DNA from: Bacillales bacterium UBA6120
GTDB taxonomy: Bacteria; Bacillota_I; Bacilli_A; RFN20; CAG-826
Length of the DNA stretch: 64,000 bases
Assembly: GCA_002422535.1 (NCBI GenBank)
Contig: DIVY01000003.1
Location: forward strand, 10,523-74,522
Reading direction: 5' to 3'
Shown here: positions 1,182 through 64,000 of the stretch, piece after piece
How the letters are laid out: each line of letters starts with the position of its first letter
Position numbering within the stretch: position 1 is the stretch's first letter
Translations under genes and position numbers: made by a program
Notes under the pieces: model-generated
The model's database searches: none
The model's input: only the letters and a program-made list of their open reading frames with translations
What the model was told of the DNA's origin: nothing

Positions 1182-1198
1182 AATTATTGCCGCCCCCT

Positions 1199-4100: not shown

Positions 4101-4756
4101 CGGAGCGCTTCCCGATCTCCAAATAAATCGAGAATTAATTGGGGATCTTCTAAACCAATCGCCTTTAAGAAAATCGTGGCATACATTTTCCGTTGCCGAT
4201 CAATCCGCACGGTTAATACATCTTTAACATCGCTTTCAAATTCAAGCCACGTTCCTCTCATTGGAATGAGGTCAGCTTTATAAAGCAATTTACCGGTTTT
4301 ATCCATTGTTTCCGATAGATAGGCGCCAGGAGAACGACGGATTTGTGAAACGATGACCTTTTCAACGCCATTTATAATAAAAGTGCCGCTGTCAGTCATC
4401 ATTGGAAAATCACCAAGGAAGACTTCGGCATCATTAATAACGGAAGTTTCTTTGAAAATCAATCTTAACGTCACACGTAAAGGAGCGCTATAAGTGGTAT
4501 CGCGTTCTTTGCATTCTAAATATTGATAACTTGGTTCGTCGAAACGAAAATTTAAATACCGTAGCTCGAGGTTACCAGCGTAGTTGATGATGGGAAACAC
4601 ATCTTTCAACGCTTCGTCAAGTCCCTCTTCAAGTAGCCACCGATATGATTCGGTTTGCACTTCGACAAGATTAGGAAGCGGTAATGATCCGCTAATTTTA
4701 CTATAGTCGCGGCGACCGGTACTCATCATCTTAAATTGTTTGATTTGTTTTGCCAT
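1199..4756 (-). CDS. rpoB: DNA-directed RNA polymerase subunit beta
   Basis: 1185-aa ORF beginning [38 protein letters not shown], a typical RpoB N-terminus with conserved motifs throughout. SD AAAGGAG sits 7 nt before the ATG at 4756. Confidence 0.97.
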
Positions 4757-4783
4757 AGCAACGCTCCTTTGTGTTCTGGAATA

Positions 4784-5380
4784 TTAGTCATACGCTTCGT
4801 AAACGTGGTAACCATGGTCACGCTTAATGCGTGTCACATGGTTGTAAATTGTTTTTAGATAACTTGCGGTCGAATCGGCTCCTTGGGCTTTCCGAATGAC
4901 TAGATACAATCGGCCCCCTAGATTAAGATGCTCTTTGGCTTCTTGGAAGAGGCGGTAGATTGTGGCCTTCCCCGTTCTAATCGGGGGATTGGTGACAATC
5001 GTATCGAACTTCTCGGTCACGGAAGCAAATCCATCGCTTACGCGAGCGCCTACGCGCGAAGTCAACTTGGCGACTTTGATATTATTTTCGGCTAAAGCGA
5101 CCGCACGTTCATTGATATCGACAAGTATTGCCTGTAGTTGATTATTTTGGGTGGCCAAGACGATACCGATGGGACCATACCCGCACCCAAGGTCAAGCAA
5201 GCGTTTTCCAAGGGGAAGGGATACTAGTGTCTCCAATAAAATTTGGCTGCCCGCGTCGATATATCGGGAAGAAAAAACTCCGACATCCGTGTGGAAGGTA
5301 TAAGCGTGTCCAGCGATTTCAAACGTCAGAACACGTGGTTTGCTGGTCAATCTTTCGTCATTTTCGAAGTAATGAGCCAG
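4784..5380 (-). CDS. ybxB: Class I SAM-dependent rRNA methyltransferase (YbxB/RsmC-like)
   Basis: Carries the methyltransferase motifs LDLGCGYGPIG and VTNPPI. It sits between rplL and rpoB, as ybxB does in Bacillus. The ORF track starts it at a TTG at 5407, but a strong SD (GGGAGGTG) lies inside that extension, and the only in-frame codon at proper spacing (7 nt) is CTG at 5380 (giving MAHYFEND.., which aligns with YbxB N-termini). The start is therefore uncertain; the ORF-track extent is 4784..5407. Confidence 0.8.
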   Translation of the reverse strand: MAHYFENDERLTSKPRVLTFEIAGHAYTFHTDVGVFSSRYIDAGSQILLETLVSLPLGKRLLDLGCGYGPIGIVLATQNNQLQAILVDINERAVALAENNIKVAKLTSRVGARVSDGFASVTEKFDTIVTNPPIRTGKATIYRLFQEAKEHLNLGGRLYLVIRKAQGADSTASYLKTIYNHVTRIKRDHGYHVYEAYD

Positions 5381-5453
5381 AAAAACGCACCTCCCTAAAA
5401 AGCCCAAAAACCCGCCTTACGACAGGTTTTGGACAATAATCATTTAAGCTTGG

Positions 5454-5837
5454 TTATTTAATCTCAACTTCGGCACCGGCGGTGACAAGAGCTTTCTTGT
5501 GTTCTTCAGCTTCGACGGGTGAAATCTTTTCTTTGATAGCAACGGGAGCGCCATCAACTAATTTCTTAGCATCCATCAAACCGAGACCGGTGATTGCTTG
5601 CACCGCTTTGATAACGGCGACTTTGGATGAGCCGACCGCTTTTAGGAATAAGCTGACATCGACTGGGCCCTTCGGGGCGCTTTCTTCTTCTTCAACAGCA
5701 GGACCGGCAGCGGCAGCGACCGGGGCGGCCGCGGTGACACCGAATTCGGTTTCCACAGCCTTGACTAAATCATTGAGTTCGAGAAGTGTCATCTCTTTCA
5801 ATGATGCGATGATTTCGGCGATTGTTAATTTTGCCAT
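5454..5837 (-). CDS. rplL: 50S ribosomal protein L7/L12
   Basis: 127 aa beginning [34 protein letters not shown], followed by an Ala/Glu-rich hinge and a C-terminal domain. Canonical L7/L12. Confidence 0.95.
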
Positions 5838-5849
5838 GTTATGTTCCTC

Positions 5850-6353
5850 CTAATTGGCAGTTGTTGATTGATTTTGTTCGCTGATGGCCTGAATGGTCGC
5901 CGCGAATTGACGAATTGGCGATTGAATACAAGACAATAGCATCGAGATGAGTCCGAGTTTGCCTGGCAATGAGCTGACGGCTTTTAATTCCGCGGAATTT
6001 AGAACGCGGGATTCAATGACGCCGGCCTTGACTTGCAATTTACCGCTTTTGCGAGCGAATTTGAACAGAACTTTCGCGCCTTCGATAGCATCGGGGCAAA
6101 AGACAACGGCATTTGGACCCGTCAAATGCTCTTCAAATCCTTGATAAGCGAGCTTTTCGCCAGCACGGGCTACCATCGAATTTTTATAGATGGCCATTTT
6201 TGCGTTCATGCCGCGTAAAAGGCGTCGCAAATCGCTTATTTCAGCGACATCCATGCCACGATATTCGACGACGATTAACGCCGAAGTATCCTTAGCAAGA
6301 GCGATGATTTCGTCGACAACGGCTTCTTTTTGTTTCAAGATAGCTTGTTTCAC
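5850..6353 (-). CDS. rplJ: 50S ribosomal protein L10
   Basis: 167-aa L10 homolog. GTG start at 6353 with SD AGGAGGTG 6 nt upstream. Lies directly upstream of rplL. Confidence 0.93.
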   Translation of the reverse strand: MKQAILKQKEAVVDEIIALAKDTSALIVVEYRGMDVAEISDLRRLLRGMNAKMAIYKNSMVARAGEKLAYQGFEEHLTGPNAVVFCPDAIEGAKVLFKFARKSGKLQVKAGVIESRVLNSAELKAVSSLPGKLGLISMLLSCIQSPIRQFAATIQAISEQNQSTTAN

Positions 6354-50264: not shown

Positions 50265-51137
50265 TTAATTTGCGATTTCTTTTAAAAGATTGTTAATTAA
50301 ACCAAGATCAGCAACATAACGGGTCAAACCGGTTTCATTAAGCGGAGTTTCATACACGACACTCATAATGGCGTCTGCGTAAGAAAGCATCAAATAACCC
50401 TTGTCCTCAAACAACACTAGAGTGAAGTCTTCCAAATATTCATTAAGCGGCAATTTATTTAGATGTTTTAGAATGTTTTTGTGAGCTTTTGGCAATTCTT
50501 CGTCAGTTCCAAACACCATGATGCCATCACCACTATCAATCAACTTTAAATCAAGAAGGCCGGGGGCGAGCGGAAGCTTATCGTTGCGCCGAGCATGATA
50601 AATAATGTGGTTTGACTGCCTTTCTTTGGCTTGAAACCGGACAATTTTGCCAAAAAAAGCGACTTCGATTCTTTTATCTTTTTGGACGCGCACCCCAGCA
50701 TCCGCAAGGGCGAAAGGAATATTATCGATTGTTCCCGTCACAAGATTACGACTGATGATACTAACTTCATCTTTTAGTACTTTAAGGGCGCGAATTTCTT
50801 CAAGTTCAAACCCTTGTTCTTCTTTAACCTCGATTTGTTCAAATGGGCGATCGTTATATAAGAAGGCATCCATCGTTTTGTAATAATTGAATATATAGGC
50901 ATATGTTTGCTTGCCAAGCCACTTTTTGACAAGGCGCGAATAGATAAACAAGGCAATAATCAAAATGGCAACAATGATCAGCGCCAGCGTCATGTTTTGT
51001 TCTAATAGCCACAAAAAAGTGGCGCCCATACCTAGGGCAATTACTCCAAGGACGATATTATTAATAAGTTTCGTTTTCTTAAATAGTTTTAAAAATTTTA
51101 GACGATTAGCTTCGACTTGTGCGATTAACTGTTTCAT
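50265..51137 (-). CDS. Hypothetical membrane-anchored protein (two N-terminal TM helices plus a ~200-aa cytoplasmic domain)
   Basis: 290 aa with no recognisable motif. It starts 21 nt after the thiT stop with no terminator between them. Confidence 0.55.
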   Translation of the reverse strand: MKQLIAQVEANRLKFLKLFKKTKLINNIVLGVIALGMGATFLWLLEQNMTLALIIVAILIIALFIYSRLVKKWLGKQTYAYIFNYYKTMDAFLYNDRPFEQIEVKEEQGFELEEIRALKVLKDEVSIISRNLVTGTIDNIPFALADAGVRVQKDKRIEVAFFGKIVRFQAKERQSNHIIYHARRNDKLPLAPGLLDLKLIDSGDGIMVFGTDEELPKAHKNILKHLNKLPLNEYLEDFTLVLFEDKGYLMLSYADAIMSVVYETPLNETGLTRYVADLGLINNLLKEIAN

Positions 51138-51158: not shown

Positions 51159-51725
51159 TCACTCACGCTGTTCACTAGTGGGATACATTTTATTGATGCG
51201 CTGAAGCGGTATAAATAGCAACCACATGACGGGAATAGTAATCGCTAGTGGCGGTAATACGACAAAAACCGCATTATATATTAGTGAGCCCCCAAGCGTT
51301 GTTTCATATATCACAATGCCCGAAATTACATGGAATACATATCTGACGGCTACGGCGGCTATAATGCCGAGCGTCAGCCACCCGTAATTAATTAATTTTT
51401 GGGGCCGCTCTTTATCGATTAAAGGCTTGAAGAATGAAATGATGGCTAATGATCCATACGCCAATAAATAGTCGAGGGGATAAGTTATAAAGCCATAGCC
51501 ATCGAGCAGGTTCGTCAAAAGTCCATAGACAATGCCAATGCCGATGAAGCTCTTAACAAAGCCATGGCGTAACGCCAGAATTAAAAGTGGGACCATCGTC
51601 AATGACAGGGATCCGCTTTGTGCGCCTAGGCGAATTTTAAACCCATCGCGGTCGAGTAAGACTGCCAGAGAAACAAGCATGGCGATTTCGGCAATTTCTT
51701 TAATCGTCATTTTCCATTTATTCAT
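51159..51725 (-). CDS. thiT: Thiamine transporter ThiT (ECF-type S component)
   Basis: 188 aa with 6 TM helices. It resembles ThiT/YuaJ (..FHVISGIVIYETT..) and is preceded by a TPP riboswitch. Confidence 0.75.
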   Translation of the reverse strand: MNKWKMTIKEIAEIAMLVSLAVLLDRDGFKIRLGAQSGSLSLTMVPLLILALRHGFVKSFIGIGIVYGLLTNLLDGYGFITYPLDYLLAYGSLAIISFFKPLIDKERPQKLINYGWLTLGIIAAVAVRYVFHVISGIVIYETTLGGSLIYNAVFVVLPPLAITIPVMWLLFIPLQRINKMYPTSEQRE

Positions 51726-52616: not shown

Positions 52617-53708
52617 ATGAAAATTCTTTTCGTTTTCGCCCATCCGGCGCCATATAAAATCGATTTGTTCAACGGCCTCGCTCCCCATATCGATTTAACC
52701 GTTGTGTTCGAACGCCATTCGAGCGGTTTTCGTCATCCCTATTTTTATGAGCGCACCAACTATAATTTTCGAACCATTTTTTTACGGGGAATCTCAATTG
52801 GAGCTGAAAACCATTTATCGTTTGAATTGATACGTCATTTAAAAAATAACGCCTATGATCTCATCGTCATGAATGGTTATTCCTCGTTTACCGAGATTCT
52901 AACGATAAAATATTTGCAAAGGAAAAAGCGCCCCTATGTGCTTTACGTCAATGGTGGGGTCATTCATGAGGACCCCCGGTGGCGCTTAAACTTAAAAACA
53001 AAATTAGTCAGCGGAGCCACCCATTATTTTTCCCCATCAACTCACGTTGATTCGTACTTACGCCATTATGGGGCGCAGCAAGAACAAATAATTCACTATC
53101 CATATGCCACCATTTATGATGGCGATATCGCGGCAGAGAAAATTTCCCTCAAACAAAAGCACTCTTTTTGGAAGTCGCTTAACATACCTGATGGACCCGT
53201 GTTTATAAGCGCCGGTCAATTCATCGATCGCAAAAACAATATTGGTATCTTAAAAATTTGGTGTGACCGCCCTCAAGATAATCAATTGCTTCTGATTGGT
53301 TCGGGACCCGATGAACTAAAATACCAACATTTCATCACTGAGCATAAAATGAAAAATGTCCACATCATTCCTTATCAAAAAAGGCATAATTTGTTGAATT
53401 TAATGCGCTACGCGACGGGATTCATCATTTTAAGCAAGGAAGACATCTATGGTCATGTAATTAATGAATCGCTGTCGCAAGGTTTGCCAGTCATCAGTTC
53501 AAGGCACGTCACGGCCGCCTTACATCTTATAAAAAATGCGGAAAATGGCTTTCTTGTCGATTTAGAAGACACCGATGCTATAAATAATGCCATTACAACT
53601 TTAATCAAAAAGGATTTGTTTGCTAACTGCACTGCCACCTCTCGCGGCAACACCATTGAAAAAATGGTTGACCATCATTTACAGACATTCGCTAATATTA
53701 AATTATGA
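52617..53708 (+). CDS. Glycosyltransferase, family 4 (GT-B, Glycos_transf_1)
   Basis: 363 aa. The C-terminal half carries the GT4 E-x7-E-like region (..SKEDIYGHVINESLSQGLPVISS..). Confidence 0.75.
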   Translation: MKILFVFAHPAPYKIDLFNGLAPHIDLTVVFERHSSGFRHPYFYERTNYNFRTIFLRGISIGAENHLSFELIRHLKNNAYDLIVMNGYSSFTEILTIKYLQRKKRPYVLYVNGGVIHEDPRWRLNLKTKLVSGATHYFSPSTHVDSYLRHYGAQQEQIIHYPYATIYDGDIAAEKISLKQKHSFWKSLNIPDGPVFISAGQFIDRKNNIGILKIWCDRPQDNQLLLIGSGPDELKYQHFITEHKMKNVHIIPYQKRHNLLNLMRYATGFIILSKEDIYGHVINESLSQGLPVISSRHVTAALHLIKNAENGFLVDLEDTDAINNAITTLIKKDLFANCTATSRGNTIEKMVDHHLQTFANIKL

Positions 53709-54853
53709 CGTTAATCTATTTAACCAATTCAATGCTTTGCGAAGATTTTGATGAGTTGAATAAAAACGCATTAATCAAGGCTAATCCAAGCAATCAAAAC
53801 TTCCATAACCGTCTTATTCGTGCCTTTGCGAAACATCATCAAGTTATCGCCATCTCCTATCGGCCTTTGGCAACATATGGAAAGCCTTCGTTTTTACCTT
53901 ATGCTTGGAAAAAAACAAAGCGAATCACTTATCACTATCTCCCGATTCATAATCGCAAATACATAAAACAGAAACGCATAATTGACGATGGCACCAAACT
54001 TGTGTCAAGAATATTAAAAGCACCCAAAACAACGGCACCTTTACTAATTGTTGATGCATTAAATGGCACTCTAAGGCAATTGGCGAAAAAGATTGCAAAA
54101 AAATATAAATTAAAGACTTTAGCTATCGTCACCGATAACCCGCTTTTACTAAGCGGGGCCAATCAAAAAAAAGCCGAAAGCGCAATTAAAGACATGCAGA
54201 AGTTTGATTATTATCTTCCCATGACACAAGCGCTCGATATTTTAGTAAATCCTTCGCACAAGCCGCACTGCAATATCACAGGAATTTCTGAAGAAAGGCA
54301 ATTTCATTCCAGTTATGACAAACCTTATTTATTTTTCTGTGGCGCCTTGCATGAACGCTATGGGATTAATAACCTGATTCAAGCTTTCATGACCACCGAT
54401 TATGAAATTGAGCTTCTTATTGCCGGACACGGACCCGATCATTACGTAAGGCTTATGGAAAAGAAAGATCCCCGGATTAAATTTTTAGGTCAATTGACGC
54501 AAGGCGACATTTTTAAGTATGAGTCTGGGGCATTGATCAATATTAACCCACGCCCGTTTGACCGCGCTTTAAACGTTTATTCAGTGCCTTCAAAATTCTT
54601 TGAGTACATGACTAGTGGTGCGCCTACGATGTCGACCGAACACGAACTATTGACACCTAAATATGAAAAACTCGTTATCTGGGCGGGATCCGGTTCTCCC
54701 TCCGAATTAAAAACAGCGCTTGTCCAATTTATGGCTCTCTCAAACGCTGCTCGCGATCGTATGGCTAAAAAGGCGAAAGAAACCGTCCTTGCTGAATTTG
54801 GCATTGATGCAATCGGCGATACCCTTAATCAGTTTTTAATGTCGTTAAGATGA
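53705..54853 (+). CDS. Glycosyltransferase, family 4-like
   Basis: 382 aa with a GT-B C-terminal domain (FFCGALHERYGI.., PSKFFEYMTSGAPTMSTE). It overlaps the upstream GT gene by 4 nt. Confidence 0.65.
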   Translation: MTLIYLTNSMLCEDFDELNKNALIKANPSNQNFHNRLIRAFAKHHQVIAISYRPLATYGKPSFLPYAWKKTKRITYHYLPIHNRKYIKQKRIIDDGTKLVSRILKAPKTTAPLLIVDALNGTLRQLAKKIAKKYKLKTLAIVTDNPLLLSGANQKKAESAIKDMQKFDYYLPMTQALDILVNPSHKPHCNITGISEERQFHSSYDKPYLFFCGALHERYGINNLIQAFMTTDYEIELLIAGHGPDHYVRLMEKKDPRIKFLGQLTQGDIFKYESGALININPRPFDRALNVYSVPSKFFEYMTSGAPTMSTEHELLTPKYEKLVIWAGSGSPSELKTALVQFMALSNAARDRMAKKAKETVLAEFGIDAIGDTLNQFLMSLR

Positions 54854-56022
54854 TGTACTAGTTCTTTAACGACTTTTGTTAATGTATGATGTTCCTTAAA
54901 ATACGCCAAATTGCGTGCCCCTAGCGCGCTTTTTTCTTGCTCGGACATACTTAAAACCGCTTGAATTCCTTCGATTAAACCATCTTTTGTTGGGTCCACT
55001 AGGATCCCGCCACCCGCTTGGTTTAAAATATCGCGACCATCACCTTTTAGGGCCCCGATGATTGGACGCGCGTATTGTAAATACATCATTAATTTATTGG
55101 GAATGGTTTTTCCCACATAGCCATCTTGTTTAAGTGGTAGTAGCAAGGCATCAGCGTTAGGGCCATAAGTGGCGGCAACTTCACTCGCAAGTGTTCCATA
55201 GAGATGAATTCTATTTTCAAGATGATGTTCATTAACAAACGCCTTGATGTGGAGATAACGGGATCCTTGACCAATTAAATGTAAATGTAAATCCGTTTCC
55301 CCAAACATCAAGAAGGCTTCTAAAAGCTCTTCAATTAATTGCACTTGACCAAGATTGCCAATATAAACAATGTGGTGTCCTTCTTTAAAGTCAATTGCCG
55401 GACCAGAACTAGTTTCTGTAATTGCCGGTTGTACTAAAGTAAATATCTTATCCCCAGAAATCCCATGCTCTTCATTCATGTATTGCCTGTATGATGGTGA
55501 GCCTACCAGTAACCGGTCGGCACTTTGATAAATTTGTTTTGACCAGTGTTTTAACAGTTTGAAACCTAAAGTATCCCTTCCAATTTGATTGGTAAAAACA
55601 ACAGATTCGGGCCAAATGTCAACGCAGTAAAGTATTAAAGGCAATTTGTGCTTCTTCGCGTATTTAACCGCGGGAACAAGGGAAATTACTGGTGAGAGAC
55701 TCATGGCGAATACAACATCGTAATCACCATGATGATGCCTGACAAAATGGCGACCCAAAAAATAGAATGAAAAATAATTTATTATCAAGGATATTTTGCT
55801 TTGTTTTCGCGCAACGATTGGCAAACGATGGACCTTGACGCCATCGATTATCTCAAATTTTGTCTGGCGATATTCAGGAAGGATTTGACCGAATCCGGCA
55901 TTGGGACGCCCCGTAATAACGGTAACTTGATGACCCATGGCGACTAACTCGCGCATTAAAGGCGTGATTGAGAAATTCTCCGGATAATAGAATTGACAAA
56001 TAGTAAGAATATTCATATTCAA
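54829..56022 (-). CDS. Glycosyltransferase, family 4 (WcaI-like)
   Basis: 397 aa. The N-terminal half reads ILTICQFYYPENFSITPLMRELVAMGHQVTVIT, typical of the GT4 N-domain. The C-terminal GT-B domain reads ..GTIPNKLMMYLQYARPIIG... It is convergent with the upstream GT gene, and the 3' ends overlap by 25 nt. Confidence 0.75.
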   Translation of the reverse strand: MNMNILTICQFYYPENFSITPLMRELVAMGHQVTVITGRPNAGFGQILPEYRQTKFEIIDGVKVHRLPIVARKQSKISLIINYFSFYFLGRHFVRHHHGDYDVVFAMSLSPVISLVPAVKYAKKHKLPLILYCVDIWPESVVFTNQIGRDTLGFKLLKHWSKQIYQSADRLLVGSPSYRQYMNEEHGISGDKIFTLVQPAITETSSGPAIDFKEGHHIVYIGNLGQVQLIEELLEAFLMFGETDLHLHLIGQGSRYLHIKAFVNEHHLENRIHLYGTLASEVAATYGPNADALLLPLKQDGYVGKTIPNKLMMYLQYARPIIGALKGDGRDILNQAGGGILVDPTKDGLIEGIQAVLSMSEQEKSALGARNLAYFKEHHTLTKVVKELVHHLNDIKN

Positions 56023-56120
56023 TAGTTTATCTTTAGTGAACTTGATTTAATAGGCAAATCGCGCGATTTTTCACCAATAATATTGCCATTATGCAAATTA
56101 GTTTATAATATTTGTTAATC

Positions 56121-57041
56121 ATGAATCCCAAATTTCGAAAACTTGCGCCACTTGTAAGAATTATCTTCGCTCCGCTTAGAGCCATCATGCGGTCGTTTTT
56201 CCCAATCACCTATGTCAAATGGCAGTACCGCTATTTAACAAGGCATCGGCTAAATTTAAAACACCCGCGGCGCTATACCGAAAAATTACAATATTTACGG
56301 CTTTTTGTTTACCCATACGATCCAGAGGTGAGTCGCTGCGCCGATCGCATTCGCGTTAGAAATTACTTAATTGAAAACGGCTTAGAAAAATATCTTATAC
56401 CATCACTGGGATATGTTGAACAGTTCCAACAAATTGATATTGGGGCGCTGCCTAATCAATTCGTATTGAAATGCAATCACGCGTGCGCTTTCAATCAAGT
56501 TGTGCTAGATAAGGCTACGCTGAATTCGCGATTGCTAAAACATAAATTCAAGAAATGGTTAAAAACCGATTATGGAAAACGGACCATTGAACGCCATTAC
56601 AGCAATATCATTCCCAAGATTTTAATTGAGGAATATCTTGGCGAGGGCAATACTTTACCGACAGAATACAAAATCCATGTCTTCAATGGCAAAGCTAAAA
56701 ACCTTTATGTGGTTACCGGCCGTGGCGGAGATATTCGCTATACCAATTTCTATATCGATTGGACCCCATTTGATGGGAGCCAATTCAATGGTTGGCGCAA
56801 AGCCGATGAGCCAATTAGCAAGCCCCGTAATTTTGATGAAATGGTGGCTTTGGCGGAGAAATTAGCGGCTCCTTTTCCGTTCGTGCGCGTTGATTTGTAC
56901 AATATTAATGGTAAAATATTTTTTAATGAGATGACGTTTACTCCTGCCAAAGGAACCTTATTGCTGGACGATGATTCCGTTGATTATCAAATGGGGGCCT
57001 GGCTTGACATAAGCGCCTATCAACCACAAGGAAATTCATGA
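56121..57041 (+). CDS. TupA-like ATP-grasp protein (polysaccharide biosynthesis-associated)
   Basis: About 306 aa. Motifs such as YKIHVFNGKAKNLYVVTGRGGDIRYTNFYIDWTPFD and the general length and hydropathy match the ATPgrasp_TupA family found in teichuronic-acid and EPS loci. The ATG at 56121 lies 11 nt after a TATAAT, with no SD. Confidence 0.55.
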   Translation: MNPKFRKLAPLVRIIFAPLRAIMRSFFPITYVKWQYRYLTRHRLNLKHPRRYTEKLQYLRLFVYPYDPEVSRCADRIRVRNYLIENGLEKYLIPSLGYVEQFQQIDIGALPNQFVLKCNHACAFNQVVLDKATLNSRLLKHKFKKWLKTDYGKRTIERHYSNIIPKILIEEYLGEGNTLPTEYKIHVFNGKAKNLYVVTGRGGDIRYTNFYIDWTPFDGSQFNGWRKADEPISKPRNFDEMVALAEKLAAPFPFVRVDLYNINGKIFFNEMTFTPAKGTLLLDDDSVDYQMGAWLDISAYQPQGNS

Positions 57042-57823
57042 AAAATAAACATTCACTAATTGGTCTTTCGCTTTTCGTACTCGTTTCCTGTGGACAAGAT
57101 GTCGCCTATGCCCTTGATAGAACGACTTACCATACTGACGTTTTTGCCGATAACATGTATCAGGACACCGTTTTAACATCAACGCTTGCTCCCGAATACA
57201 TTGCTTCGACGACTATTTACGCTGTCAATCAAGATAATTTAATCGCAGGAGTTACAAATTTAAAAGAAGCCGATCGCATGTATAACAATGCCGTGATAAA
57301 CGATGATGTTTTTATGAAAAATAACAAACTATCGCAGACTATTCCTGAATTAAAGTACGGCTTTGAAAGCAAATTATTCGACGGCATGCTCCATTGTAGC
57401 GATGCGATTCGCGTTAGCAAAAGCCGGCTTCAACTTCAAGAAAGTGGCTTTGGGTACGTATTTCCCAATACTTTAACATCCGGCACATTCACGGGACTAT
57501 ATATAAAAGCCGGCGCTGATACTTTATCAGGCGGGGTCTATATTAGCGATGTCAAAGTATCGCTTTCGTTTTATGAACCCCTAGATGCGATTAATTTTGC
57601 CAAACATGAATTTCAAATGGAAATTGCTAGTGTTCGTCGCAGTGACTTTCCCCAGTTTTATGGATTTTATTTTGATGATGTCGCCAGTGGATTTTCGCTT
57701 GATGGGGTGACCGCCTTCAGCGTCACCTATGATATCCTTGATGCGGCCGCTTCTGCAAGCAATCCTCATTATACCGCCTTGTTTGTTTATGAAATGGTCA
57801 TCGCAAAAAGCGTTTGGCATTAA
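57038..57823 (+). CDS. Hypothetical lipoprotein
   Basis: 261 aa with a signal peptide and lipobox (LFVLVSC-GQD). The remainder is Ser/Thr/Tyr-rich with no recognisable domain. Its ATG overlaps the upstream stop (ATGA). Confidence 0.6.
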   Translation: MKNKHSLIGLSLFVLVSCGQDVAYALDRTTYHTDVFADNMYQDTVLTSTLAPEYIASTTIYAVNQDNLIAGVTNLKEADRMYNNAVINDDVFMKNNKLSQTIPELKYGFESKLFDGMLHCSDAIRVSKSRLQLQESGFGYVFPNTLTSGTFTGLYIKAGADTLSGGVYISDVKVSLSFYEPLDAINFAKHEFQMEIASVRRSDFPQFYGFYFDDVASGFSLDGVTAFSVTYDILDAAASASNPHYTALFVYEMVIAKSVWH

Positions 57824-57830
57824 TTATTAA

Positions 57831-59222
57831 TTAAAAATTCGATTGAGCGACTACATCAGTGGTTCTATTTTTTATCTTACCTTGCCGCCCTTTTTCATAT
57901 GCGTATCCCACGAAGAATATTACTAACAAAAGTATTAATTCGGAGAAATAAGGTGTTTTATAAATGCGCACATCTTCACGAACGAAGGGCGCATATTCAT
58001 ATTGAAACATCGTGGTAAAAATATATGTCAAGGTGAAGGACATGATGATGATTTTGTGGTGTTTAGCATCTTGAGAAAATCTATAATAACTGATGAAGTG
58101 AAACACTGAAAAACCAAGGAACGCTAAATAGCCGAGGAACGCAAAAATGCCACCTTGGTAAAGGGTATCAAACACAGCGCTTTTGGTCGATTCAATGAAC
58201 GAGTTATTGACGATTATCGAATGGAAACCACCGAATGGATGTTGGAGTGCGGCTTGAATCACTTCGGCATATCCAACAACAAGATTATTTCCATATACAC
58301 GGCTTAAGATGGCATTGTTAGCGACCAAATCAACCGCAAAAGGTACTTCAAATGCGAATAGTAGTAAGAAGATGGCCGCTAAAGCGAAAAGTGCGCCAAA
58401 GGCAATAAAGGTGTTTTTAGTAATAGATTTAATACGAGAAGTATTCGGTAAGAATCTAAGGGCTAAAGCCATCAAGATAGCAGGTATCGCATATTTGAAT
58501 ACTGAAAATACGGGTAATAAAATGAGTGATAAGAGCCCTAAACCACCAGCTATAATCCAGGGCAAATCCCATTTTTTCAGTTGTTTGAATGGCACGAATA
58601 AAAGACCGGTTAAAAGCGAAGTTAGCAAGATACCATGACGGGAAAAGAAACTAACAACAACTTCTTTAAATTCGAATCCAAATAACCATTTGGCTTCATT
58701 CGATATAAGATAGGCTTCCCCATCAAAATATAAATTCATGCCCGCAAAACGTGTTACATAAAAGAAGGTATAACGCCACATTGTATAAACTAACGAGATC
58801 GTCAAAATAATCGCCAAACCTGACACAATCACCGCTAGGGCGCGGTCTAATTTGAATTCATCATTTAAGGCCATCGATATCCCAATTAATAGAAAACTAA
58901 TTAGCGAGAAGACCATGGCGATGTTGTCCACGACCGTTTGTAACACAAAATATAGTGGCGAAAAAGCCATAAAAACGCCGAAGGCAAAAAGAGGCAAAAT
59001 AAACATCAGTGACACATTTAGCCAATCTTCTTGTTTGTATCTTAAGATCGTGATAGGAATCAGCGCAAGCGCTAATAAAATCGCCAAATAACGAAAGAGC
59101 ATCCCGTAGTTTGCAAGATTCAAACTCGTAAACAATAACAATTCCATGACGAGAAATACTAATAAGGAGCCATACTTCTTTTGATAGTGTTCGAGCTGGC
59201 CTTTTTTCATTACCAATAACAT
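57831..59222 (-). CDS. Polytopic membrane protein, Wzy/O-antigen-ligase-like (putative polysaccharide polymerase)
   Basis: 463 aa with about 10-12 TM helices and a larger loop in the C-terminal third. The architecture and context fit Wzy or O-antigen-ligase-like proteins. Alternative ATG at 59210 overlaps the upstream stop (TAATG). Confidence 0.5.
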   Translation of the reverse strand: MLLVMKKGQLEHYQKKYGSLLVFLVMELLLFTSLNLANYGMLFRYLAILLALALIPITILRYKQEDWLNVSLMFILPLFAFGVFMAFSPLYFVLQTVVDNIAMVFSLISFLLIGISMALNDEFKLDRALAVIVSGLAIILTISLVYTMWRYTFFYVTRFAGMNLYFDGEAYLISNEAKWLFGFEFKEVVVSFFSRHGILLTSLLTGLLFVPFKQLKKWDLPWIIAGGLGLLSLILLPVFSVFKYAIPAILMALALRFLPNTSRIKSITKNTFIAFGALFALAAIFLLLFAFEVPFAVDLVANNAILSRVYGNNLVVGYAEVIQAALQHPFGGFHSIIVNNSFIESTKSAVFDTLYQGGIFAFLGYLAFLGFSVFHFISYYRFSQDAKHHKIIIMSFTLTYIFTTMFQYEYAPFVREDVRIYKTPYFSELILLLVIFFVGYAYEKGRQGKIKNRTTDVVAQSNF

Positions 59223-60163
59223 CCTTTCTCAACGTGTTCGGCCCCTTTGGGTAATTGTTCTGGTCGCGTCCACGATGAGGTGACAAAGCGGGTCACATGA
59301 CTCCGATTTTCCCATCTTCTCCCCATTATACCAAATAAGAGTTGCGTCGCTCCTCCCGTTTGAATCGCTTGGCGATTCAAGCTTTTTATGAACCAGCATA
59401 ATGGCGTTCCAAAGGCGCCCGCGCCAACAAGGGCGATATCAAATTCATGTTTGACGATTTCCATTTTTAGATAATCAAGCGCTTCAAACCAATTCAAAAA
59501 TCGTTCATCCAACTGGTCGCCAAGTGTTTGGACCGCTTCTACCGTCAACAAGGTAAAATCAGGAAGTACGGTCTCATTAGATATTATCTCGCGCCGCTTA
59601 GCATATTGTTTTTCAATCAATTTAGCAAATGGCGATATGACTAAGACGCGTTTCCCCGCTAATTGAGAGGTCCAATCTCCCATTAGTGGCTCAAACGCAT
59701 TGTATTGGATCACCCGAGCATGGGGAATATATTTTTGGTAGAAATAATCTTCCATATGAATCCCTGAAATTCCAAGAATATCCGTATTGGGTAAATCTTT
59801 AAAATAATGGGAAGCATAATAATTTAAATTGGCATCGGTCGTCGGGAAAAAGCCACCATTGTTTTTCATTGAGAATTTTACCGACTTTTTATAACTATGA
59901 CGCCAACCAAATTGAATTTTTTCGTAATTATTCAAACAACTTAGTTCCGTACCTCCAAACCTGATTGCGGCGAAAGGCAGACCACTTTTAATCGCATCTT
60001 TTAAAACTTTATTACTATATTCTTGGGTGATGCCTTTTTGCCCCGCAAATCGAAGTACCTTCTTTTTGCGGCGAAATAGTTTCCAAAGCAAAACAAACCA
60101 AGTATTCTTCAAAAAATATGCGAAATAAGTCGATTTTTTCTTATAGGGAACAAGAACGGCCAT
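59210..60163 (-). CDS. Hypothetical soluble protein in the glycan locus (possible glycosyltransferase; weak, unverified resemblance to GT-D/DUF1792)
   Basis: 317 aa with no secure motif (AAIRFGGTELSCL, RVLVISPF, DIALVGAGAFGTPL). It is co-oriented with the two patatin genes and overlaps the Wzy-like gene start. Confidence 0.4.
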   Translation of the reverse strand: MAVLVPYKKKSTYFAYFLKNTWFVLLWKLFRRKKKVLRFAGQKGITQEYSNKVLKDAIKSGLPFAAIRFGGTELSCLNNYEKIQFGWRHSYKKSVKFSMKNNGGFFPTTDANLNYYASHYFKDLPNTDILGISGIHMEDYFYQKYIPHARVIQYNAFEPLMGDWTSQLAGKRVLVISPFAKLIEKQYAKRREIISNETVLPDFTLLTVEAVQTLGDQLDERFLNWFEALDYLKMEIVKHEFDIALVGAGAFGTPLCWFIKSLNRQAIQTGGATQLLFGIMGRRWENRSHVTRFVTSSWTRPEQLPKGAEHVEKGCYW

Positions 60164-60164
60164 A

Positions 60165-61385
60165 TTAATTGATTAAACCGAAATGCACCGCGGCAAAAAA
60201 TAATTCGGGATAATGAAGGCCGAGCATTGTCTTCGTCTCTTGTGTCAAAGTTAGACCTTCTTTGGCGATTTGGCGTATCATGCCAAAGCGGATGTTTGGT
60301 TTCATACTCCGTAAACGGAATTGTTGCTCACTTGAGCGCTTTTTAATCCACGTTTCATGTTTAAGATTGGGGGTTATCGCTTGTTCGATTTCTTGTGTAA
60401 ATTGCGGTATTTCATAAATTTTTAACGGATCTAAACCAACGCCTTCGCCAATGATTTCTAAAAACCGTAAATACTTCGTGCGCGTCGTCATCGTGTCGTT
60501 GATCTTTTGTTTAATGGCAAAATTAAGTTCTTCAATTCCGGCTTCCTCAACGATATTCATGATGCGTTTGGCAATGGCGTCGAATGCGCTTGTGATTTTG
60601 AAGGTGTATTTATATCCAAGATATTTTCCAAATTTTTTCATCGTGTCTAGGTATCCTAAACGTGTATTTTTCGCCACGATTTCGCGACGAATCATTAAAA
60701 ATGGTCCTAGGTTATGATAACTTCGAATATAAGTAACCCGTGAATCGTCAACGTATTCGGGATGACTGAATTGCGCATTATTTAAATCGACGGCGATGAC
60801 ATGTTCTGCCCCAAGATTAAAAGCCAAATCAATTGGAAGGCGGTCATGATAGGCACCATCGATATATTGTTCGCCATTAATAACAGTGACGGGAAATGCC
60901 GGATAACAACTTGCGCTTGCTAGCAGATATTGGGATATTTCCTCTTTTTTTGTTTTCTTTATATTGATGTCTTTGCCACTGATTTTAGGATAAGTGGCGA
61001 CCGTGACGCCAAATTCAACGGGCGACTGAACTAGCTTATCGACATCGAGAAATTCTTCTATCAGCGATTTGAACGGGCTGATGTCAATCCCTTTGTTCTT
61101 GACATAAGAGGCGATGAATTTCAATAATTCGCGTTTATCGCTTCTTAGAATTTCATCAAGGTCAAGATTGATACCATGCTTCATGATTTTTTTCAATTCG
61201 ATATTGTGCCAAAGTTTTTCAAGCGTCGCTAAATCTTCACTGGCCATAATCGCGCCATTTAAGGCACCAATGGAAGCGCCAGTGATGACTTTATATTTAA
61301 TCTTCAACTCATTTAAGGCTTGGAAAAAGCCGACTTGGTAGGCACCTTTAGAGCCGCCACTTCCCAATGCGATACCGATTTTCAT
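60165..61385 (-). CDS. Patatin-like phospholipase (paralog 1)
   Basis: The N-terminal patatin domain has the oxyanion hole GSGGSKG, the nucleophile elbow GASIG and the catalytic Asp in DGAYHD. A C-terminal helical extension of about 180 aa follows. Confidence 0.8.
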   Translation of the reverse strand: MKIGIALGSGGSKGAYQVGFFQALNELKIKYKVITGASIGALNGAIMASEDLATLEKLWHNIELKKIMKHGINLDLDEILRSDKRELLKFIASYVKNKGIDISPFKSLIEEFLDVDKLVQSPVEFGVTVATYPKISGKDINIKKTKKEEISQYLLASASCYPAFPVTVINGEQYIDGAYHDRLPIDLAFNLGAEHVIAVDLNNAQFSHPEYVDDSRVTYIRSYHNLGPFLMIRREIVAKNTRLGYLDTMKKFGKYLGYKYTFKITSAFDAIAKRIMNIVEEAGIEELNFAIKQKINDTMTTRTKYLRFLEIIGEGVGLDPLKIYEIPQFTQEIEQAITPNLKHETWIKKRSSEQQFRLRSMKPNIRFGMIRQIAKEGLTLTQETKTMLGLHYPELFFAAVHFGLIN

Positions 61386-61402
61386 CGTAAGTCCTCCTTT
61401 AT

Positions 61403-62680
61403 TTAAATGTTAATTGTCCGATTGAAATTTTTATTGATTAACCGAAGCATCATGTATGTCAGTGAGTATTTGGCTTTCTTTGTTGTCCAAAGAGGAAGCG
61501 CTGATTCATGATACTTTTTTTCTAATACATATTTTATCGCTTCAAGTGCCGTCTTTTCATCTTTTGGTGAAAGATGTTTGCCTAATTGTATTTTTTTAAG
61601 AATGTCGATAAGCCGATGATTATCAAGAACGGACCATAATGTGCGATAAAGAAGGCGCGCTAGCTCATCAACTTTGTAAATTGGAGTTGGATCATATCGT
61701 AATGTTTCCGCTAAAATTTCGAGGCCCCGAAGAAACATTTGCCCCTGTTTCATTTTGCCGCCCGTATGTCGTTTAAGTAATACCATAATTTGATTGCTGA
61801 TATTTGAAAAATGCGTATCAATCGTCGTTTGCAACTGGTTATCAAGATCAATTAATTCATCATATGGAAAGAAAGTGTAGCGATAACCGATGAAGCCTCC
61901 TAATTTTTTCATGGCATCGTTATAGCCTAGCTTTTGATTGCGATCAATGATTTTTTGCGTAAAATTAAACGACATGCCAAGATTCCACGACGGCTCGATA
62001 TTAATTACATCACTTCTTCGGTTCAATAAGGGATGCCAATTAATGCGATAAAATAAATTAACCGCGATGACTTTGGTAGCCCCTAAATCAAATGCAAACT
62101 GAATCGGCAATGAATCTTTATAACCACCATCGATATATGTTTTTCCCTTAATTACTTTGACAGGAAATAATGGCCAAATGGCAGCGCTAGCAAATAGCCA
62201 ATCATACACTTCATCATCAGGGACATCTGCCAATACTACATTATGTTGTTTTAATAACGGCAGCGAGACGGTCACGATTCCATACTTTACTTTGGCTTGT
62301 TTTATTTCTTTAGGACTAATGTTCGCTTTAATAAGATCTATAAAAGGGGAAATATCGGCGCCTTTATTTTTGATATAGCGCTTTGTAAATGTAAAAATTA
62401 GTCGTCGCTGATATTTGAAAGTTTTGACTAATGCCTCCCACTGTAAATTGATGCCGTCTTTCATGACCTTCTCAGGACGGACATTTTGCCATAAATTTTG
62501 TCCTTCAACGTATTTATCAGCCGCCCAAAAAGCGCCAATTAAAGCCCCAATTGATGTTCCTGTGATGACTTTTGGTTGTATATTAAGTTCGCGAAGTGCT
62601 TGCCATACACCCATTTCATACGAGCCTAATGAGCCTCCGCCACCTAGGGCAATTCCCATTGTCTTAGTGCTATCATCCAT
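61403..62680 (-). CDS. Patatin-like phospholipase (paralog 2)
   Basis: Motifs GGGGSLGS, GTSIG and DGGY. Its architecture parallels the adjacent paralog, with a patatin domain plus a C-terminal extension of about 200 aa. Confidence 0.8.
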   Translation of the reverse strand: MDDSTKTMGIALGGGGSLGSYEMGVWQALRELNIQPKVITGTSIGALIGAFWAADKYVEGQNLWQNVRPEKVMKDGINLQWEALVKTFKYQRRLIFTFTKRYIKNKGADISPFIDLIKANISPKEIKQAKVKYGIVTVSLPLLKQHNVVLADVPDDEVYDWLFASAAIWPLFPVKVIKGKTYIDGGYKDSLPIQFAFDLGATKVIAVNLFYRINWHPLLNRRSDVINIEPSWNLGMSFNFTQKIIDRNQKLGYNDAMKKLGGFIGYRYTFFPYDELIDLDNQLQTTIDTHFSNISNQIMVLLKRHTGGKMKQGQMFLRGLEILAETLRYDPTPIYKVDELARLLYRTLWSVLDNHRLIDILKKIQLGKHLSPKDEKTALEAIKYVLEKKYHESALPLWTTKKAKYSLTYMMLRLINKNFNRTINI

Positions 62681-62744: not shown

Positions 62745-64000
62745 ATGGAAATCAACAACATTATCGAATCGCAACAACAATATTTTAAAACAAATTGCAC
62801 CTATGAGGTCTCTTTCCGCATTGACGCTTTGAAAAAATTAAAGGCCAATATGTCACTAATGGAAGCGGACATTAGCGCGGCTTTAAAAATTGATTTGGGA
62901 AAATCTGAGGAAGAAGCCTATCTAACTGAAATCGGAATGGTTCACGAAGAAATTAGCTATATGCTTAAGCACATCAAACGTTTTGCCAAGGACAAACGAG
63001 TCCCCACACCATTGGTAAATTTTTATGGAAAAAGTTTCAGGCGTCCCGTCCCATACGGCAATGTATTAGTTATGAGTCCCTGGAACTATCCGTTTTTATT
63101 AGCCTTGGGTCCCACGGTTGATGCCATCGCCGCCGGTAACACGGTCATTATCAAACCTGGATCATACGCCGAGGCGACTGGAAACATTATCAAGAAACTT
63201 ATTGAGGCTACGTTTGAATCAAAATATGTCGCTGTCGTATTAGGTGGCCGTAACGAGAACCAAACATTGCTTGATAATAAGTTTGATTACATCTTCTTTA
63301 CCGGTTCAACAAGCGTTGGCCGTTATGTTATGGAAAAAGCATCGGCCCACCTGACACCGGTGACGTTAGAGTTAGGAGGTAAATCTCCCGCCATTGTCGA
63401 TATGACCGCCGACTTGAAAATCGCCGCGCGCCGCATCATATTTGGAAAACTGATCAACTGCGGACAAACTTGCATCGCTCCCGATTATTTGATTGTTCAT
63501 AAACTAATAAAACAGCAGTTTATTGAGCTTTTAATCAAAGAAATCGAACGACAATATGGAAAAGATTCACTCAAAGAAAATCGTTATGGCAAAATCATTA
63601 ATCAAAAACATTATGACCGCCTCGTTAGTTTGTTTCAGGATGAGCACCTTGCTTTTGGTGGCCGGCTTGACGCTGAAAAACTCAAAATCGAACCTGTGCT
63701 ACTTGATGAGGCAACATTAGACTCAAGGGCCATGAATGAGGAAATATTTGGTCCCATACTCCCAATATTGACGTTTGAAACGACCGAAGATATCCTCGAT
63801 ATCATCGATAAACATCCAACACCACTTGCCCTTTATTTATTCACCAAAGATTCTGTCAGAGAAAAACAAATATTGACTCATGTTCCCTTCGGTGGGGGTT
63901 GTGTCAATGACACGCTTGTTCACATAGCCACCACGAGTATGCCCTTTGGAGGCGTGGGAAATTCGGGGATGGGCAGTTACCATGGTTATGAAGGATTTAA
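62745..64000 (+). CDS. Aldehyde dehydrogenase family protein (class-3 ALDH-like), truncated at the window end
   Basis: An open frame runs from the ATG at 62745 (SD GAGGT 4 nt upstream) to the window end. It begins MEINNIIESQQQYF and contains ELGGKSP, the catalytic-Cys context GQTCIAPDY and EIFGPILPI. It is not in the ORF track because no stop falls inside the window. Confidence 0.85.
   Translation, partial: MEINNIIESQQQYFKTNCTYEVSFRIDALKKLKANMSLMEADISAALKIDLGKSEEEAYLTEIGMVHEEISYMLKHIKRFAKDKRVPTPLVNFYGKSFRRPVPYGNVLVMSPWNYPFLLALGPTVDAIAAGNTVIIKPGSYAEATGNIIKKLIEATFESKYVAVVLGGRNENQTLLDNKFDYIFFTGSTSVGRYVMEKASAHLTPVTLELGGKSPAIVDMTADLKIAARRIIFGKLINCGQTCIAPDYLIVHKLIKQQFIELLIKEIERQYGKDSLKENRYGKIINQKHYDRLVSLFQDEHLAFGGRLDAEKLKIEPVLLDEATLDSRAMNEEIFGPILPILTFETTEDILDIIDKHPTPLALYLFTKDSVREKQILTHVPFGGGCVNDTLVHIATTSMPFGGVGNSGMGSYHGYEGF

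Follow-up and report, generated by a model that had tools for sequence, protein, structure and literature searches.

The nine genes at positions 52617 to 62680 of the window, the 64-kb stretch of DNA analyzed here, form a genuine, if rather ordinary, gene cluster for a cell-surface sugar polymer, and in a group of uncultured Bacilli the locus is inherited vertically and keeps one chromosomal position. At its core are two protein families that have no Pfam or NCBIfam model, a membrane protein with a WaaL-type predicted fold and its lipoprotein partner. Joined by a TupA ligase and a GT-D-like enzyme, they make up a strictly conserved module; all that is known of the lineage comes from metagenomes, human-gut contigs among them. 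We favor the view that the locus assembles a cell-surface glycan or glycoconjugate with the membrane protein in a Wzy-like role, and we consider this mechanism, taken as a whole, somewhat probable. The nine genes and the neighboring aldehyde dehydrogenase gene are as follows.

52617..53708, + strand: GT4a, a GT-B family 4 glycosyltransferase of 363 aa (Pfam Glycos_transf_1)
53705..54853, + strand: GT4b, a glycosyltransferase of 382 aa with a GT1/GT4 C-terminal domain (Glyco_trans_1_4, Glycos_transf_1)
54829..56022, - strand: GT4c, a GT-B family 4 glycosyltransferase of 397 aa (Glyco_trans_4_4 and Glyco_trans_1_4)
56112..57041, + strand: TupA-like ATP-grasp ligase, a predicted amidoligase acting on a sugar carboxylate (PF14305)
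57038..57823, + strand: lipoprotein of 261 aa with a CBM-like beta-sandwich and an invariant loop (lipobox, predicted fold)
57831..59222, - strand: 12-TM WaaL/Wzy-fold membrane protein of 463 aa, a predicted outer-face glycan polymerase or ligase
59210..60163, - strand: GT-D-like predicted glycosyltransferase of 317 aa (PF22882, NF040628)
60165..61385, - strand: patatin-like phospholipase 1, 406 aa (PF01734)
61403..62680, - strand: patatin-like phospholipase 2, 425 aa (PF01734)
62745..64000, + strand: class-3-like aldehyde dehydrogenase (ALDH), which runs off the window end (translation)

The coordinates and strands of all nine reading frames agree with the first-pass annotation, as does the spacing it described, with overlaps of 4 bp between the co-directional GT4a and GT4b, 25 bp between the convergent GT4b and GT4c, 4 bp between the lipoprotein start and the TupA stop, and the TAATG junction at which the GT-D and WaaL-fold genes overlap. 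The lipoprotein and WaaL-fold genes are convergent with a 7 bp gap, and gaps of 1 bp and 17 bp separate GT-D from patatin 1 and patatin 1 from patatin 2. Translation of the WaaL-fold gene likely begins at the ATG at 59210 within the TAATG overlap (for a product of 459 aa), and that of the TupA gene likely at the ATG at 56121. Counts of predicted promoters and terminators across 51.7-63 kb came near those of shuffled sequence (37 versus 35.6 and 14 versus 10.2), so the scan yields no operon boundaries, and no Rfam family matched anywhere in the 64-kb window.

The three family 4 glycosyltransferase calls held up, with a Glycos_transf_1-type C-terminal domain above the Pfam threshold in each protein. 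GT4a matches Glycos_transf_1 at 74.8 bits (E 7.6e-21); GT4b matches Glyco_trans_1_4 at 38.5 bits and Glycos_transf_1 at 31.9 bits (GT4 domain E 1.7e-9); and GT4c matches Glyco_trans_4_4 at 51.2 bits and Glyco_trans_1_4 at 44.8 bits (GT4 domain E 2.4e-13). No specific NCBIfam equivalog reached its cut-off for any of the three. GT4a occurs in 29 of 32 dereplicated relatives with enough flank, accompanied by GT4b and at times also by GT4c, which is the most variable of the three genes and is missing in many outgroup loci.

The 317-aa protein had been called unclassifiable, and we now predict from weak HMM matches that it is a GT-D-like glycosyltransferase. It scores 31.5 bits against PF22882 (cut-off 27), over residues 226-273 only, and all 11 of its homologues match this family. 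NF040628 (GT-D_rel) spans residues 54-250 at 20 bits, below the cut-off of 75, and also matches 11 of 11 homologues, all under cut-off (best E 1.4e-6). The protein is 49-82% identical between lineages. Through PF22882 and NF040628 it shows HMM kinship to dGT1 of Streptococcus parasanguinis (DUF1792/GT-D, PDB 4PFX), although a PDB profile search with it returned no match, the solved GT-D chain included. In GT-D (DUF1792), an Asp-X-Glu motif coordinates Mn2+ (PMC6493773). The window protein, unlike dGT1, has no D-x-E, nor does the homologue alignment contain a conserved D-x-E column; it has instead a [DE]-[FY]-D motif, conserved at columns 243-245. The serine-rich-repeat adhesin and accessory Sec genes of the dGT1 setting are also absent near the window GT-D gene.

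The TupA-type ATP-grasp assignment proved sound. The protein matches PF14305 at 128.6 bits (cut-off 25, E 3.7e-37) over profile positions 2-238 of 241, is 58-70% identical across all lineages, and in 36 of 37 dereplicated loci its gene adjoins that for the WaaL-fold protein. The characterized TupA-like member, Cj1438C, forms an amide at the C6 carboxylate of GlcA (PMC11800379), and the family is predicted to put amino acids on surface polysaccharides (PMC13419641). By analogy, we predict that the window ligase amidates a sugar carboxylate, most likely that of a uronic acid. It shares PF14305 and a surface-polysaccharide locus setting with the C-terminal domain of Cj1438 from Campylobacter jejuni and with WemR-type amidoligases, but it is a stand-alone protein of 306-309 aa that lacks the GT2 fusion of Cj1438. 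A PDB profile search found no solved relative, and no UDP-glucose dehydrogenase is encoded in the window.

The polytopic protein had been described as Wzy- or O-antigen-ligase-like, a description that stands at the level of fold and fails at the level of sequence. The window protein has no Pfam or NCBIfam match; the Wzy_C (PF04932), O-antigen ligase and EpsG models match 0 of 45 diverse relatives at E<=0.01; and a PDB profile search relaxed to E 10 still missed WaaL. With Pfam, NCBIfam and PDB profiles all empty, we rejected an assignment to any of these families by sequence model. The predicted structure has the features of the WaaL-type fold, with about 12 TM helices and an extracytoplasmic domain between late TM helices, and Foldseek against the PDB returned the ligase WaaL as its closest solved structure. 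Because WaaL is the only clear match of its superfamily among solved structures, the fold cannot tell a ligase from a polymerase. The protein is 12-13% identical to the O-antigen ligase WaaL of Cupriavidus metallidurans (PDB 7TPJ/7TPG), from which it differs by an extra beta-hairpin insert after TM5 and by its host, a Bacillus-class bacterium that, judging by its taxonomy, presumably has no lipid A acceptor.

For catalysis by WaaL and PglS, three Arg and one His have been proposed (PMC12800693). Among 159 members of the WaaL-fold family, only E27, K213, N312 and K390 are conserved polar residues, and no family-wide Arg/His signature was found, with loop alignments across the family being unreliable; R308, H328, E345, D352 and E416 are common in the close clade. 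That no such signature was found counts against our favored reading of the locus, as do the weak HMM matches and missing D-x-E of the GT-D-like protein. The family comprises 288 cluster representatives among 1.84 billion. Of 20 clusters examined for a named or cultured carrier, every one was either unnamed or a "Bacilli/Firmicutes bacterium" MAG, and a GTDB scan found the family in 7 of 185,579 species, all of them MAGs.

The lipoprotein call was confirmed by a lipobox L-V-S-C at residues 15-18, matching L-[ASTV]-[GAS]-C, within a hydrophobic segment at residues 7-25. All 24 close and all 10 distant relatives share the Cys of this lipobox (MKNKHSLIGLSLFVLVS-C18). The body is modeled as an invariant, well-folded beta-sandwich that resembles CBM/glycan-binding modules, and an invariant Ser/Lys/Cys-containing loop is left unplaced by AF2. 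Its gene lies beside the WaaL-fold gene in 39 of 39 dereplicated loci, with reading frames that often overlap; in outgroups this overlap is 4-29 bp, which suggests translational coupling. We conclude that the lipoprotein is an obligate partner of the WaaL-fold protein.

The first-pass annotation had taken the block for an accessory island that would vary across strains. Its GC content of 0.385-0.407 is like that of the flanks (0.394-0.414), and the block sits between pfk and ung-thiT even where GT-D is only 45-57% identical; we therefore rejected a mobile or accessory island. No integrase or transposase was found among the genes of the locus and the relatives' annotated flanks. The outgroup order is GT-D > WaaL-fold > lipoprotein > TupA < Wzx < (GT4c) GT4b GT4a, followed by ung and thiT, and this gene set has the composition of a Wzx/Wzy-type locus. 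In dereplicated loci with the WaaL-fold gene, at least one GT4 gene is present in 29 of the 32 with enough flank, Wzx in 13 of 32 and a patatin in 14 of 37, and the GT-D-like gene is nearly always next to the core. The core is retained without any GT4 in loci of the L002 type and even without GT-D in three others (L006, L017 and L018), where the trio of WaaL-fold, lipoprotein and TupA genes has no glycosyltransferase gene within 8 kb. A core that lacks GT4 or GT-D is odd for a repeat-unit polymerase and counts against our favored reading; a trio standing alone fits an enzyme that is independent of one locus-encoded repeat unit.

The flippase gene does not simply lie beyond position 64000, as the first-pass annotation had suggested it may. 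In outgroups, Wzx sits between TupA and the GT4 genes, and this slot is empty in the window; neither the window nor any locus of its clade contains Wzx (MOP/Polysacc_synt). An initiating phosphoglycosyl transferase, a chain-length regulator and an LCP ligase were found neither in the window (the nine genes and ten other large ORFs) nor in the relatives' annotated flanks, and the first two could lie elsewhere in the genome. That the clade loci encode no priming enzyme, flippase, chain-length regulator or LCP ligase also counts against our favored reading, and the lipid-carrier pathway is therefore one that we infer. Like Wzx/Wzy-dependent O-antigen, capsule and EPS loci, the cluster combines a cytoplasmic glycosyltransferase set, a decorating enzyme and one WaaL/Wzy-superfamily polytopic protein, and in outgroup loci also a MOP-family (Polysacc_synt) flippase. 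It differs from them in that no relative has an initiating transferase, chain-length regulator, tyrosine kinase or LCP ligase, the window clade has no flippase, and the polytopic protein matches neither Wzy_C nor EpsG. Two further differences are that the polytopic protein has an obligate lipoprotein partner and that the cluster passes vertically at a stable site, unlike a serotype island that varies.

In the mechanism we favor, the three GT4 enzymes and the GT-D-like enzyme would extend a lipid-linked sugar unit on the cytoplasmic face, after priming by an enzyme presumably encoded elsewhere. The TupA-like ligase would join an amine or amino acid to the carboxylate of what is most likely a uronic acid, as its characterized relative suggests. 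A Wzx-type flippase, whose gene has gone from the locus in the window clade and which would be supplied from elsewhere, would turn the unit over, and on the outer face the WaaL-fold protein and the CBM-like lipoprotein would move the glycan en bloc off the lipid carrier. For the WaaL-fold protein, we only narrowly favor Wzy-like chain polymerization over ligation to a final acceptor.

Ligation defines an alternative that we hold as a tentative possibility, in which the WaaL-fold protein acts as a ligase or O-oligosaccharyltransferase and a glycan made largely elsewhere goes to a terminal acceptor, either a membrane glycolipid (as a lipoglycan) or the neighboring lipoprotein. If the lineage should prove to be wall-less, this would favor the lipoglycan form. 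Its nearest solved structure is indeed a ligase, the trio outlasts all GT4 genes and can do without nearby glycosyltransferases, and both the strict adjacency of the lipoprotein gene and the invariant, unplaced loop of its product would suit a dedicated acceptor. In PglS/ComP and TfpO/PilA, the transferase gene adjoins the gene for such an acceptor. The arrangement here is similar, with a WaaL-superfamily membrane enzyme gene directly beside the gene for a secreted or anchored protein, but in place of a pilin the neighbor is a folded lipoprotein of CBM-like type. PglS has itself been modeled on WaaL (PMC12800693). Against ligation, the match to WaaL does not discriminate between the two activities, the conserved Arg/His catalytic set was not found, the beta-sandwich looks more like a glycan-binding module than a passive acceptor, and outgroup loci with Wzx and three to four glycosyltransferases contain no other polymerase candidate. 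A bolder version, which we think quite improbable, makes the trio a self-contained, undescribed outer-face glycoconjugate ligase that would pass an amidated glycan to a membrane glycolipid (a lipoglycan-type anchor) or to its own lipoprotein, with the patatins of the window clade recruited into the operon to tailor the acyl chains of the anchor. Most improbable of all, to our minds, is that the core makes no glycan but a peptide-type or teichuronopeptide-like polymer, assembled by the ATP-grasp enzyme and then exported or anchored with the help of the membrane protein and lipoprotein. TupA takes its name from teichuronopeptide synthesis in Bacillus halodurans, and the occurrence of the trio without glycosyltransferases and the failure to find a WaaL-type catalytic signature would agree with such a product; however, GT4 genes surround the core in 29 of 32 dereplicated loci with a GT-D-like gene nearly always adjacent, the membrane protein has the fold of lipid-linked-glycan transferases, and the biochemically characterized TupA-like domain (Cj1438C) acts on a sugar carboxylate. 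If characterized, the module would show how these uncultured Bacilli make their surface glycoconjugate. The WaaL/Wzy superfamily would gain a second point of reference, very distant from the first, and TupA-type sugar amidation would gain a genetic context in Gram-positive-type bacteria.

Both patatin calls were upheld by PF01734 (90.1 bits for patatin 1 and 93.3 bits for patatin 2; cut-off 27.7). The G-x-S-x-G serine, D-G-[AG] aspartate and Gly-rich oxyanion loop are retained in each (GASIG/DGA with loop GSGGSKG in patatin 1, GTSIG/DGG with loop GGGGSLG in patatin 2), from which we predict that the two are intact lipid acyl-hydrolases. They are paralogues with 37% identity. Neither has a signal peptide, TM or hydrophobic segment above threshold, and on this ground patatin 1 is probably cytoplasmic. 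Their best NCBIfam match is RssA, and they share the patatin domain and Ser-Asp dyad motifs of RssA-type bacterial patatin-like phospholipases, but at 63.7 and 45.8 bits they fall far below the 272-bit cut-off, and they differ by an extra helical C-terminal half of ~200 aa and by being tandem paralogues. We rejected a role as anti-phage defense effectors, since in PADLOC they match only a generic phospholipase effector model, at just 13.7 and 17.2 bits; the other four proteins scanned gave no match.

The patatins and ALDH were inserted late between pfk and GT-D, and only in the window clade: group B loci read pfk > GT-D directly, and those of the window clade read pfk ... ALDH < Pat > (Pat >) GT-D. 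Patatin 1 is found in the window clade only, and relatives with one patatin keep the patatin 2 copy. A patatin adjoins GT-D in all 14 dereplicated lineages of this clade, with a junction of 1 to ~90 bp in nearly every member. The patatins are probably co-transcribed with GT-D, and such short junctions fit an operon, which leaves room for a functional link.

The first-pass annotation had gone further and coupled the patatins to the polymerase-like gene. The shared strand and tight spacing on which it relied are real; functional coupling is weakened, since 23 of 37 dereplicated relatives with the core lack patatins. It had also reasoned that patatins kept beside ALDH in genomes without the glycosyltransferases would be unlinked to the glycan genes. 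This was half borne out: the pair persists without GT4 in L002-4, L013/14 and L028-33, but the patatins there still abut GT-D and the WaaL-fold gene. We consider it unlikely that the patatins are working parts that act with the WaaL-fold protein, whether by remodeling or cutting the acyl chains of a glycolipid anchor or by freeing lipid-linked glycans. The spacing of 17 bp and 1 bp on one strand, the intact catalytic motifs in both copies, and an adjacency to GT-D that outlasts loss of GT4 and of ALDH (in L005, ALDH is missing and the patatins are still next to GT-D) argue for such a role. However, the patatins are dispensable for the core, and they lack signal and TM segments, whereas the active side of the WaaL-fold protein and its lipoprotein partner lie outside the cytoplasm. 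The family is also broad (1111 matches), and in the one outside context examined, in Dielma, a relative stands alone with no glycan neighbors. No paper in the full-text literature joined patatin-like proteins with glycosyltransferases, lipoteichoic acid or glycolipids. Moreover, ung, thiT and pfk are just as stable neighbors, and adjacency in this lineage thus reflects frozen synteny; with gene order frozen, tight pairs such as patatin-GT-D and ung-GT4a are weak evidence for a common function. The ALDH gene, which is divergent from patatin 2 and whose full-length orthologue in L001 best matches an MdlD-type ALDH (420.6 bits, below the 550 cut-off), is a neighbor that lies outside the glycan module.

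Translation bore out the coordinates and strands of the nine open reading frames that the first-pass annotation had placed in the glycan locus (window 52617-62680), and the genes are closely packed. Genes GT4a and GT4b overlap by 4 bp, GT4b and GT4c are convergent and overlap by 25 bp (window 54829-54853), and TupA ends 4 bp inside the lipoprotein gene. The lipoprotein gene converges on the gene for a 12-TM polytopic protein, with 7 bp separating their stops (window 57823-57831). The gene for a 317-aa protein overlaps the polytopic gene and starts 1 bp from the end of patatin-1, which lies 17 bp from patatin-2. Neither convergent pair leaves room for a terminator. The most probable start of the polytopic gene is 59210, because this position combines the TAATG junction, Shine-Dalgarno spacing and agreement with a near-identical 459-aa database protein. 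For TupA, ATG 56121 is the most likely start because homologues begin MxNP. The right-hand neighbor, a class-3-like aldehyde dehydrogenase (ALDH) gene, begins at 62745 and is cut short by the window's end. No glycan-related genes were found elsewhere in the window.

Pfam confirmed the three GT4-type glycosyltransferases, the ATP-grasp protein of TupA-like type (128.6 bits) and both patatins (90.1 and 93.3 bits), and none of the nine locus proteins reached an NCBIfam equivalog cut-off. The polytopic protein has a WaaL-type fold, and the lipoprotein is CBM-like. The 317-aa protein, previously called unclassifiable, matches PF22882 above threshold (31.5 bits against 27, over residues 226-273 only), as do all 11 homologues tested. 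The GT-D fold domain model NF040628 aligns with residues 54-250 in the same 11 of 11, below its cut-off. Yet the D-x-E metal motif, a defining feature of DUF1792 (PMC6493773), is absent, and a profile search of PDB sequences gave no match; we therefore call the protein GT-D-like on these profile matches. Its family has a conserved [DE]-[FY]-D ahead of a Gly-rich loop.

The polytopic protein and the lipoprotein are rare. A word-indexed search of 5.8 billion proteins returned 24 relatives of each, and a profile search found 288 members of the polytopic family among 1.84 billion representatives. A close relative is carried by 7 of 185,579 GTDB species. With few exceptions, the named carriers are metagenome-assembled genomes (MAGs) of uncultured 'Bacilli' or 'Firmicutes/Bacillota bacterium'; the exceptions are a few MAGs labeled 'uncultured Staphylococcaceae' or 'Bacillales bacterium'. 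The patatin family is broad, with 1111 matches that include Erysipelotrichaceae, Paenibacillus and Helicobacter.

Using the polytopic and GT-D-like proteins as anchors, we gathered 93 related loci, mapped their components with HMMs and dereplicated them at 95% GT-D identity into 54 lineages. After dereplication, the lipoprotein accompanies the WaaL-fold gene in 39 of 39 cases and TupA in 36 of 37, while any GT4 is present in 29/32, Wzx in 13/32 and a patatin in 14/37. Four arrangements recur.

Gene arrangements among the related loci (> and <, gene orientation)
Outgroups (GT-D 45-53% identical; human-gut contigs included): GT-D > WaaL-fold > lipoprotein > TupA < Wzx < (GT4c >) GT4b < GT4a < ung > thiT >
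Group B (GT-D 55-57%): pfk > GT-D > WaaL-fold > lipoprotein < TupA < GT4c/b/a, ung, thiT
Window clade (GT-D at least 64%): (pfk) ALDH < patatin > (patatin >) GT-D > WaaL-fold > lipoprotein < TupA <, then GT4c/b/a-ung-thiT or zero GT4 (L002-4, L013/14, L028-33)
Minimal form (L006:2022-5066, L017:8001-11289, L018:8001-11618): WaaL-fold, lipoprotein and TupA only, beside rlmH

The three minimal loci have no glycosyltransferase within 8 kb; in L006, TupA is 60% identical to that of the window and the membrane protein only 27%. From these arrangements we conclude that the functional core consists of the WaaL-fold protein, the lipoprotein and TupA, nearly always with the GT-D-like protein, and that it can do without the GT4 genes, which are usually present. 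They also overturn the proposal of an accessory island: the genes form an old, vertically inherited block that occupies the same site between pfk and ung-thiT and has the GC content of its flanks. Nor is the region beyond 64 kb the place of the flippase, as the first-pass annotation had thought possible. In the outgroups Wzx lies within the locus, between TupA and the GT4 genes; the window clade has nothing in this slot, and Wzx is missing from group B loci as well.

In the outgroups, the lipoprotein gene runs in the same direction as the WaaL-fold gene, with an overlap of 4-29 bp (L016-L020, L043-L078), whereas in group B and the window clade (window 57038-57823) it is inverted and its overlap is with the TupA stop; the lipoprotein and WaaL-fold genes stay adjacent in both orientations. 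Conservation in the lipoprotein peaks at residues 107-139, a stretch that contains invariant G108, S111, K112, G116, C120 and G137 and has pLDDT <50 in the AF2 model. This stretch may serve as an interface or an acceptor loop, or it may form a catalytic site.

The first-pass annotation had also proposed that the patatins are coupled to the glycan system. In translation, both retain a loop rich in Gly, the serine of G-x-S-x-G and the aspartate of D-G-[AG], and they are paralogues (37% identical). Where group B has GT-D directly after pfk, the window clade has an insertion of ALDH plus a single patatin or two; patatins are absent from group B and outgroup loci. The patatin-GT-D junction is short throughout the clade (1 to about 90 bp) and persists where the GT4 genes have been lost and, in L005, where ALDH has been lost, so co-transcription with GT-D is likely. 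However, 23 of 37 lineages with the core have no patatin, and the genes ung, thiT and pfk keep their neighboring places just as stably, which implies that gene adjacency in this lineage is a matter of frozen synteny. Neither patatin has a signal peptide or membrane segment, whereas the lipoprotein and the predicted active side of the WaaL-fold enzyme lie outside the membrane. The annotation had named conservation beside ALDH without glycosyltransferases as what would show the patatins to be unlinked to the glycan genes; this is borne out by half, since patatin and ALDH do persist without GT4 but still abut the GT-D and WaaL-fold genes. In the one outside context examined, that of Dielma fastidiosa, the patatin has no glycan partners. 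An integral role in the glycan system thus seems decidedly unlikely. The likeliest reading makes the patatins lineage-specific, either as a passenger of the operon or as a unit for lipid turnover, and insertion with conserved synteny mostly explains the interest they had attracted. Separately, they gave no match to defense-system models.

The core suggests a pathway in which an enzyme encoded elsewhere would prime a lipid-linked unit, to be extended by the GT4 and GT-D-like enzymes. The TupA-like ligase would amidate a carboxylate of this unit. A characterized homologue, Cj1438C, forms an amide at the GlcA C6 carboxylate (PMC11800379), and the family is predicted to put amino acids on surface polysaccharides (PMC13419641). 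The amidated unit would then be flipped and transferred en bloc at the outer face, where the WaaL-fold protein would act jointly with the putatively glycan-binding lipoprotein. We narrowly favor a role for the WaaL-fold protein in polymerization, because no other candidate for a polymerase occurs in those outgroup loci that carry Wzx and 3-4 glycosyltransferases. Ligation of the glycan to a terminal acceptor strikes us as rather improbable, but it is a serious rival because the core trio persists without locus-encoded glycosyltransferases and because ligase or oligosaccharyltransferase genes can adjoin the gene for their acceptor. With polymerization or ligation, the locus belongs to a known kind, Wzx/Wzy-type or ligase-type glycan loci that include an amidoligase as decorating enzyme. 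The novelty lies in how the parts are combined: an unmodeled WaaL-fold family is joined by a lipoprotein that is its obligate partner, by a TupA ligase and by a GT-D-like enzyme, and the set keeps to a single chromosomal site in a lineage of uncultured bacteria.

Several observations concern the wider loci. Directly upstream of GT-D, L019 (5954-6319) and 16 other outgroup loci encode a small membrane protein (~121 aa, no family model), often then an ABC ATPase; the small protein may be a further part of the ancestral module. In the one outgroup genome represented by L019, lipid-metabolism genes (acyltransferase, ACP, DegV, FakA, PlsX) lie directly upstream of the module (positions 1-6000), a placement that may be coincidental. 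Marine metagenome contigs L080-L092 carry distant GT-D-like genes (28-31% identity) without a WaaL-fold partner, as two facing copies in L081 and L084.

Elsewhere, no Rfam family reached its gathering score across window 1-64000; the scan found neither a tRNA nor a ribosomal-protein leader, and the thiT-like gene (51159-51725) is not preceded by a TPP riboswitch. Between 16000 and 30000, GC rises to 0.47-0.49, against about 0.40 elsewhere, with strongly negative AT skew; judging by its gene sizes, this stretch may be the S10-spc ribosomal protein operon, including secY and adk. At 50265-51137 (reverse strand), a 290-aa protein with no Pfam match keeps its place between thiT and neighboring genes in related contigs, at 35-47% identity.
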